Assembly: GCF_024298765.1 (NCBI RefSeq)
Contig: NZ_CP101210.1
DNA length: 64,000 nucleotides
From: Escherichia coli
Lineage (GTDB): Bacteria; Pseudomonadota; Gammaproteobacteria; Enterobacterales; Enterobacteriaceae
Direction: 5' to 3' (one strand)
Part shown: one piece after another, positions 56,520 to 57,479 of the stretch
How positions within the stretch are numbered: position 1 is the stretch's first letter
How the letters are laid out: each line of letters starts with the position of its first letter
Position numbers and translations under genes: made by a program
Notes under the pieces: generated by a model
The model's database searches: none
What the model was told of the DNA's origin: nothing
Seen by the model: the letters and a program-made list of their open reading frames with translations, nothing else

Positions 56520-57479
56520 TTATGCCATCGACGCGTAAAGATTTTTAATGGTTTCCCGTAACCAGACGATCTTCGGATTACGGCTGTTCCGTTTATGCCA
56601 CAGAAGGGTAAAAGGGACTTCCAGCTTTTTTTGCTGGCTTTCATCAAACGGGAGAGGAAGAGCAACCAACGGCAGTTGGTGGAGTTGATTGTAGTACTGG
56701 CAGTAGCGCGGCGCGGTCGCCAGTAGCAGATTGTCGGGCTGTGCTGCCATAAACAGTGACTGCTCGAATTCCGGCAGGCTCATAGCAATCGTGCGTTCGC
56801 GCCCCAGCTCCTGTAACACATTGTCCAGCGCCCAGGTATCGCTCTGTTCCCAGCAAATGCTGATATGCGGATAACGTAAAAAGGTGTCCAGATTCCATGC
56901 TTCATGCAGTGCCGGATGATCTTTGCGTAACCAGACGCAGGGCACATCACTAAACAGCACTTCATAATCAATGGCTAACGGTAGCGAGCTTAACAGCTCC
57001 CGCGAACGGGGATGACTTTCGCGACCGGAAAAACCAATATCCACTTCACCACGAGTAATGGCATCTAAGGAATCGTAATCCCAGTTACGTAATTTGATGG
57101 TCGCCTGCGGGTAACGTTGGTAGATCCGTTTCGACAGCGCATTAAGCATGATCATCATTAGCGGTGATTCTGCTGCCAGTTCAAACTTCAGGCCGCGCGG
57201 TGTCTGGTGGTGCGGTTTATCCAGCAGCAGGTTGCTCATTTGCATCCACTCCGCCAGATTTTGCTCCATGCTGACCATTAGCGGTGTGGGCGACAGCCCC
57301 AGCGGTGAGTTCACAAAGAGCGGGTCGTCAAACCACGCTCTTAACTTTGCCAGCGACTTACTCACCGCCGAAGGGGTCACGTTCATCCGCTTCGCCGCTT
57401 TGGTCACGCTGCGCTCCTGCATCAGCAGTTGCAGACAGAGCAGCAGATTGAGATCAAGCGTGGTGATGGATTTCTTCAT
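56520..57479 (-). CDS. yidZ: LysR-family transcriptional regulator YidZ
   Basis: 319 aa from the ATG giving [43 protein letters not shown] (LysR HTH); the ORF track extends 3 codons upstream from a TTG. Confidence 0.9.

Follow-up and report, generated by a model that had tools for sequence, protein, structure and literature searches.

Results

A 26-nucleotide overlap between mdtL and yidZ

The window, a stretch of 64,000 nucleotides from Escherichia coli (contig NZ_CP101210.1, assembly GCF_024298765.1), carries on its minus strand the gene order tnaA, tnaB, mdtL, yidZ, yieE and yieF. YidZ is a poorly understood LysR regulator that has been linked to the anaerobic response to nitric oxide. A scan of a one-genome-per-species collection recovered 51 loci with a YidZ relative, and mdtL lies directly upstream of yidZ in 50 of these. 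The features of the pair are as follows.

57454..58629, minus strand: mdtL coding sequence, an MFS efflux pump of 391 aa (ORF list; Pfam MFS_1, E=1.1e-45; RefSeq)
57456..57454, minus strand: mdtL stop codon, TGA (from the sequence)
56520..57479, minus strand: yidZ coding sequence, a LysR-type regulator of 319 aa (Pfam, conserved ATG, RefSeq)
57479..57477, minus strand: yidZ start codon, ATG (from the sequence; conserved in 51/51 loci)
YidZ residues 10-66 and 101-313: the HTH_1 and LysR_substrate domains, respectively (Pfam)
57454..57479, minus strand: out-of-frame overlap of mdtL and yidZ, 26 nt (from the sequence)

The first-pass annotation had placed a 26-nt overlap of the mdtL stop and the yidZ start between these co-oriented minus-strand genes, and its description proved exact, the open reading frames and the RefSeq annotation being in agreement. 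On the yidZ side the overlap comprises codons 1-8 and two bases of codon 9 (MKKSITTL + GA); on the mdtL side it comprises the last 8 codons and the stop, minus the first base of codon 384 (HEEIHHHA-stop), so that position 1 of each mdtL codon coincides with position 3 of a yidZ codon. The mdtL stop lies 23 nt downstream of the yidZ start, and the intergenic distance, d, is -26. Both products of this out-of-frame, co-directional pair have full-length Pfam domains. Other annotated overlaps in the window are those of mdtD and rbsR (convergent, 35 nt, ~6507..6541), ravA and viaA (co-oriented, 7 nt, ~16123..16129) and pstC and pstA (1 nt, ~41509); among the co-oriented overlaps, that of mdtL and yidZ is the longest.

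The overlap is already known, being part of the reference annotation. The mdtL (b3710) and yidZ (b3711) genes of K-12 MG1655 are annotated at 3891615..3892790 and 3892765..3893724, and the same 26-nt overlap appears in the RefSeq annotation of E. coli strain 104, whose sequence here matches that of the present strain at 100% identity over 2351 nt. The pair was found in 5421/5426 complete E. coli genomes. The MdtL tail codons just upstream of the yidZ ATG take a rare form in the present strain, shared over 56 nt by only 1.4% of E. coli records. Elsewhere in the window, strain 104 differs in having a frameshifted yieL, which is an intact 400-aa ORF here (50242..51444, plus strand), and an ISVsa5-family transposase between tnaC and mnmE, which is absent here (61940..62180). 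Between glmS and pstS, at ~34196..39175, lies an O113-type operon for long polar fimbriae (lpfA-D); K-12 is not known to carry it.

The annotated start of yidZ is conserved

The first-pass annotation had noted that the overlap would vanish if the true yidZ start were a downstream methionine. The annotated ATG withstood this comparison. An ATG followed by MKK-encoding sequence occurs at the homologous position in 51/51 loci (MHK or MNK in Proteus and Morganella), and several loci have an in-frame stop just 6-24 nt upstream of it. In place of Met20, YidZ has Thr, Ala or Leu in Klebsiella, Raoultella, Pseudocitrobacter and one Enterobacter species; moreover, the Pfam HTH_1 match runs from residue 10, and a start at Met20 would delete the first helix of the HTH.

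Variability by codon position pointed the same way. Column entropies at yidZ-frame positions 1/2/3 were 0.46/1.12/0.97 upstream of the ATG, the pattern of the mdtL frame; within the overlap they were 0.32/0.19/0.65 bits, the pattern of the yidZ frame and not of mdtL, and downstream of the overlap 0.33/0.14/0.95. The change from the mdtL to the yidZ frame falls exactly at the ATG. That the overlap is an annotation artefact, with the real start at a downstream Met, has as its sole support that long overlaps in general frequently trace to mis-called starts; given that Met20 is unconserved and HTH_1 begins at residue 10, that ATG and MKK are universal, and that purifying selection in the yidZ frame sets in at the ATG, we regard it as extremely improbable. 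By this comparison of orthologous sequences yidZ does begin at the annotated ATG, and its overlap with mdtL is genuine, neither chance nor artefact.

The ORF list had yidZ begin at a codon further upstream.

57486..57488, minus strand: in-frame TTG, start of the mechanical ORF (MPLMKKS), nine bases upstream of the ATG; rejected as a start

This TTG is present in only some Escherichia loci and is missing from most orthologues, and two Enterobacter loci have a stop 6 nt upstream of the ATG. The mechanical ORF of yieE likewise begins 12 nt upstream of its annotated ATG (56363..56375, minus strand; MERK-MATHF), and the supplement of an in vitro survey of initiation sites lists an in-frame ATG at -12 for K-12 yieE (PMC9825163).

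A single synonymous change sets the length of the overlap

Overlap length was tabulated for the 49 loci with an adjacent mdtL; a fiftieth, the end-truncated locus L016, has an overlap of 32 nt. A length of 32 nt was found in 40/49 loci, from other Enterobacteriaceae, and one of 26 nt in 8/49 (Escherichia, K. pneumoniae and Vibrio nereis), whereas Proteus and Morganella have an overlap of 8 nt by way of a TAA in ATG-NAT-AAA. Every length is in one phase (3n+2). The 26- and 32-nt classes are separated by a single synonymous change in yidZ, Leu8 being encoded by CTT or CTC, respectively; CTT-GAT contains a TGA and CTC-GAT does not, so that in the latter case mdtL continues to the TAA in CTT-AAT. 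The step may have gone from 8 to 26/32 nt or the reverse, Vibrio nereis also having 26 nt.

Past transmembrane helix 12 (TM12), the tail of MdtL is poorly conserved with the exception of a [HYDN]-E-E motif, which is conserved because it is dictated by the yidZ codons ATG-AAG-AAA. As the tail is poorly conserved outside the residues that yidZ forces upon it, the overlapping mdtL codons look like a passive read-through tail, and yidZ looks like the constrained partner.

In Vibrio nereis (L044) the mdtL–yidZ pair is present at 57-60% identity with the same 26-nt overlap, and a record titled Hafnia paralvei ATCC 29927 (L025) has a Citrobacter-like mdtL-yidZ locus, with 82% YidZ identity, for which transfer or contamination is possible.

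Initiation at yidZ

The sequence preceding the yidZ start was compared with that of 52 annotated genes of the region.

57480..57500, minus strand: yidZ upstream region without a usable Shine-Dalgarno sequence (best anti-Shine-Dalgarno duplex -3.0 kcal/mol)

The best match to the anti-Shine-Dalgarno sequence is a GGAC some 17-20 nt upstream of the ATG; the median duplex for the 52 genes was -5.8, and that across yidZ orthologues was -2.5. The minimum free energy of the start region (-30..+33) was -8.4 kcal/mol, against a median of -8.3 for the 52 genes, and the 141-nt fold of the junction gave z = +0.69. Neither these folds nor the long-range helices, which were without covariation, contained a stable structure sequestering the yidZ start. 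With a start region no more structured than average, coupling through ribosome-driven unfolding would be without a target.

Published measurements allow the distance between stop and start to be judged. In the synthetic E. coli reporters of Tian and Salis 2015, which are not the mdtL/yidZ junction itself, the reinitiation coefficient was 0.022 at d = -4 and 0.0072 for d from 0 to 25, and fell linearly by 0.0004 per nt below d = -10; the authors advised overlaps of >=25 nt as a means of preventing reinitiation (PMC4538824). Extrapolation of these values gives ~0.0008 at d = -26 and zero at -32. For native E. coli pairs, Huber et al. 2023 found a very steep dependence on the stop-to-start distance, covering the positive, intergenic side only, and named -4, -1 and -8 as the common overlaps (PMC10666635). 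The d of -26 in Escherichia and of -32 in most Enterobacteriaceae both fall outside the range (about -8 to +6) associated with termination-reinitiation. The translational coupling that the first-pass annotation had thought possible was thus not borne out for termination-reinitiation, with the stop 23 nt past the start and published reinitiation near zero at overlaps of >=25 nt; by this analysis such coupling is unlikely in the Enterobacteriaceae, and it is plausible at the 8-nt overlap of the Morganellaceae.

An A-rich, open start context should favour initiation. We infer that initiation at yidZ is weak, independent and Shine-Dalgarno-less, at an A-rich open site. In RNA-seq data yidZ is weakly expressed (baseMean 91; PMC8464067), and low expression would fit weak initiation of this kind.

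Transcription of the pair

There is zero intergenic space between mdtL and yidZ. Nothing terminator-like was found at the junction, the two matches to the consensus lying well within mdtL, and the coding strand there shows nothing promoter-like. Across 45 orthologues, the 200 nt preceding yidZ contain no sigma-70-like hexamer pair that is conserved. In the supplements of the genome-wide studies searched, yidZ has no transcript, operon, transcription-start-site, initiation-site or ribosome-profiling entry. Co-transcription of mdtL and yidZ, which the first-pass annotation had taken the overlap to imply, would proceed from the region upstream of mdtL and is the simplest reading of this arrangement, and a plausible one. 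That region contains the following features.

58630..58887, minus strand: tnaB-mdtL intergenic region, with an ERIC-like repeat, a strong hairpin and the presumed mdtL promoter region
58756..58879, minus strand: ERIC-like repeat (sub-threshold Rfam V_AS5 match, 47 bits, E=1.7e-8)
about 58728..58752, minus strand: strong GC-rich hairpin of 10 bp, after the ERIC-like repeat (from the sequence)

The repeat at 58756..58879 resembles the ERIC consensus and is probably an ERIC element. The intergenic region is 258 nt long here and 131 nt in K-12, which is without the repeat. In K-12, a PurR ChIP-chip peak lies just upstream of mdtL (PMC3159470), and a ChIP-exo peak has been placed at 3889534..3889558 (NC_000913.2), ~80-104 nt upstream of mdtL, which corresponds to ~58710..58735 of the window (PMC8464067). 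The latter peak recurs for at least two unrelated candidate regulators, with signal/noise ratios of 65 and 102 (PMC8464067); this recurrent ChIP-exo/PurR site could be a regulatory hub or a sticky site.

YidZ itself is a many-target regulator with 118 ChIP-exo sites genome-wide, most of them intragenic (PMC8464067). Among sites 1-115 of the 118 in genome order, recorded in glucose minimal medium, none lies at mdtL or yidZ and none between rnpA and rbsD. The first-pass annotation implied that the pump is paired with its own regulator, an idea that these 115 sites do not bear out; on the same 115 sites we rejected the possibility that YidZ regulates itself through the mdtL promoter or through the conserved block described below.

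A conserved 39-nucleotide block within mdtL

Codon conservation along mdtL drew attention to a short segment upstream of the overlap.

57530..57568, minus strand: conserved nucleotide block GAATATGCTGATCGGGATTCTGATTGCCTGTAGCATAGT, mdtL codons ~355-367, 51 to 89 nt upstream of the yidZ ATG

Synonymous entropy was calculated from 45 Enterobacteriaceae mdtL sequences at columns with a conserved amino acid. The mean codon entropy of the gene was 1.22 bits (sliding 10-column median 1.27, 5th percentile 0.87), and that of codons 355-366 was 0.24, the lowest in the gene; after normalisation by amino acid, the residual at the block was -0.79, against -0.23 in the next lowest window (permutation P<1/5000). 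The block (GAATATGCTGATCGGGATTCTGATTGnCTGTAGCATAGT; alignment A2 columns 12-50, 45 species) is nearly invariant, its rare codons GGG and ATA included. It is identical in 95% of E. coli records, compared to 24% for a control segment of mdtL and 1.4% for the junction. Synonymous conservation of this degree shows that something other than the sequence of the MdtL protein is under selection here.

Several identities were considered for the block. No conserved sigma-70-like hexamer pair was present on either strand in 45 orthologues. A sigma-54 promoter, for which CGGGATTCTGATTGCC offers a GG-N10-GC-like match, was rejected because its -12 GC rests on the variable codon 363, and neither mdtL nor yidZ appears in the portions of the E. 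coli sigma-54 ChIP-seq supplements examined. A known RNA family was likewise rejected, the sole Rfam match being the ERIC-like repeat upstream of mdtL, as was an origin by repetition or gene conversion, the block being single-copy in E. coli. A long-range helix proposed by RNAalifold showed no covariation and was not retained as a conserved RNA helix; GAUCGGGAUU can pair with AGUCUCGAUC in 93% of cells, a figure that is uninformative since neither arm varies.

A natural rearrangement of the locus

In one genome, Enterobacteriaceae bacterium MGYG-HGUT-00110 (L013, Kluyvera-like; 1440..3040), a 1.45-kb insertion parts mdtL from yidZ. The insert is low in GC (35%) and carries an opposite-strand gene of 374 aa; ~145 nt of the junction are duplicated, and both genes are hence intact. 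The copy upstream of yidZ starts at the conserved block and is nearly unchanged in comparison with K. ascorbata, yet no longer codes for MdtL. What remains of the mdtL frame is a 45-codon ORF (2895..3032); it stops at the customary TAA within yidZ, and a 9-nt deletion in it keeps the frame. This layout suggests that yidZ can be expressed without the mdtL promoter; as a single genome it is suggestive, being compatible alike with a promoter or other element ahead of yidZ and with coupling of yidZ to the preceding frame.

Discussion

The balance of the evidence leans towards a compact tandem pair, most likely co-transcribed, in which the overlap is a passive by-product and yidZ is translated at low level by its own initiation rather than by hand-over from mdtL. 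The overlap geometry, the conservation of the start, the constrained frame and the absence of both a Shine-Dalgarno sequence and special structure were established directly; our reasoning is indirect on whether the genes are co-transcribed, how yidZ translation begins and how weak the coupling is. Both genes would share a transcript that starts in the promoter region ahead of mdtL, and the constrained sequence would be the yidZ start and N-terminal codons. The last 8-10 codons of mdtL would simply read on, in the +2 phase, to the first out-of-frame stop within yidZ. In Escherichia this stop is the TGA that a synonymous choice of codon, CTT for Leu8, creates (CTT-GAT); most other Enterobacteriaceae use CTC for Leu8, which leaves mdtL 6 nt longer, up to the TAA in CTT-AAT, and in Proteus and Morganella the TAA in ATG-NAT-AAA yields the 8-nt overlap. 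Translation of yidZ would proceed at a low level from independent initiation at an unstructured, A-rich AUG AAG AAA with no Shine-Dalgarno sequence. The protein-bound DNA upstream of mdtL (PurR by ChIP-chip; the ChIP-exo peak at -80..-104) counts in favour of this explanation. Two observations count against it: the 39-nt block could be an internal promoter or RNA element for yidZ, and the yidZ of L013, although split from mdtL by 1.45 kb, retains the upstream segment.

The overlap in itself is of little consequence, as one of many long out-of-frame overlaps. What is added here is comparative proof of the yidZ start and the finding that one synonymous change sets the overlap length.

Could the overlap nonetheless couple the two genes, such that YidZ tracks MdtL? 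Ribosomes ending mdtL would have to back up ~23 nt and reinitiate, or their passage would have to keep the yidZ start accessible. Coupled downstream genes typically lack a Shine-Dalgarno sequence, a lack that is conserved in yidZ, the overlap and its phase are kept across the family, and the 8-nt overlap of Proteus and Morganella belongs to a common unidirectional class (PMC10666635); the L013 remnant, too, keeps an open 45-codon frame to the same TAA, its 9-nt deletion being frame-preserving. Set against these points are the near absence of reinitiation in E. coli reporters at overlaps of >=25 nt (PMC4538824), the steep fall-off that native E. coli pairs show with increasing intergenic distance (PMC10666635) and the lack of any inhibitory structure to open. 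In addition, a ribosome translating mdtL has a footprint large enough that it should cover the yidZ start, hindering rather than aiding its use. We therefore consider real coupling improbable. On the strength of the literature, an overlap of 26 nt should instead insulate the translation of both genes, and it is not to be assumed that overlap implies coupling.

The conserved block bears on two further explanations. The block may be a cis-regulatory element for yidZ lodged in the codons of the last transmembrane helix, whether an activator-dependent internal promoter, a protein-binding site or an RNA element for Shine-Dalgarno-less initiation, with yidZ at least partly independent of mdtL transcription as a result. 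The block is under the strongest synonymous constraint in all of mdtL and is nearly invariant both in 45 species and within E. coli; its size of 39 nt and distance of 51-89 nt suit a promoter with a short leader; and in L013 the segment kept upstream of yidZ starts at the block and, while it has ceased to code for MdtL, has hardly diverged from its Kluyvera ascorbata counterpart. The absence of a conserved sigma-70-like hexamer pair on either strand, of an Rfam match and of a YidZ ChIP-exo peak among the 115 sites all weigh against such an element; so do the reliance of the sigma-54-like GG-N10-GC on a variable codon and the absence of both genes from the examined portions of the sigma-54 ChIP-seq supplements. 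L013, moreover, is one genome with a possibly recent insertion, and the 45-codon mdtL-frame ORF persists in its remnant. We accordingly entertain an element belonging to yidZ as a tentative possibility. If it exists, yidZ expression would be set by sequence in the upstream neighbour and not by the overlap, which would then say little about co-regulation; the locus would be a compact case of regulatory sequence embedded in a neighbour's coding region and would help to explain YidZ expression. Alternatively, the block may serve mdtL, through rare codons that pace the last transmembrane helix or as a site of mRNA stability or cleavage, and be irrelevant to the overlap. It coincides with invariant TM12 residues, contains the rare GGG and ATA codons, and shows by eye one GG/AUU motif that resembles the RNase E consensus. 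The common codons CTG, ATC, ATT and AAT are equally fixed, however, which pacing does not need, and no other transmembrane segment of mdtL gives a comparable signal (next residual -0.23); a role confined to mdtL thus seems unlikely. For the tandem pair as a whole, with the overlap as a by-product, the 39-nt block is the sole lead that might repay an experiment.

Comparison with known systems

The nearest relative is the mdtL/yidZ pair of K-12 MG1655 itself, the same locus with an identical 26-nt overlap (3892765..3892790 in NC_000913.3). The two do not differ in junction geometry; the present strain differs from K-12 in its extra repeat of ~127 nt between tnaB and mdtL.

A programmed +1 frameshift of the prfB type was also considered. 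The prfB +1 site combines a slippery P-site codon with an upstream Shine-Dalgarno stimulator. Slippage by +1 at the end of mdtL would bring ribosomes into frame with yidZ at codon 8-9 and yield a fusion of the pump with the entire regulator. The shift site would be CAC-GCU-UGA here and UCU-UAA in relatives, with no slippery codon, no re-pairing and no Shine-Dalgarno stimulator, and a programmed MdtL-YidZ fusion was rejected.

The adjacency of a LysR regulator and an efflux transporter gene is shared with ydhB-ydhC, ynfL-ynfM and yfiE-eamB, in which the regulator controls its neighbour (PMC8464067). Those pairs are divergent, with the regulator binding the common intergenic region, whereas mdtL and yidZ are co-oriented and overlapping, and no YidZ peak at their own locus is present among the 115 sites considered.

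With the coupled ATGA and TGATG pairs (Huber et al. 2019, PMC6728339; Huber et al. 2023, PMC10666635) mdtL/yidZ has in common its co-orientation, a downstream gene without a Shine-Dalgarno sequence and a stop near the start. It differs from them in its d of -26 (-32 in most relatives), outside the efficient range of -8..+6. The Proteus and Morganella orthologues, by comparison, have an overlap of 8 nt, the third most common class (PMC10666635).

A parallel in overlap history is with the long unidirectional overlaps attributed by Fonseca et al. 2013 (PMC3887535) to the loss or shift of a stop codon. There, as here, the upstream frame lengthens until it meets the next out-of-frame stop within the downstream gene, and the steps of 8, 26 and 32 nt in the mdtL/yidZ overlap are likewise set by the stops available.
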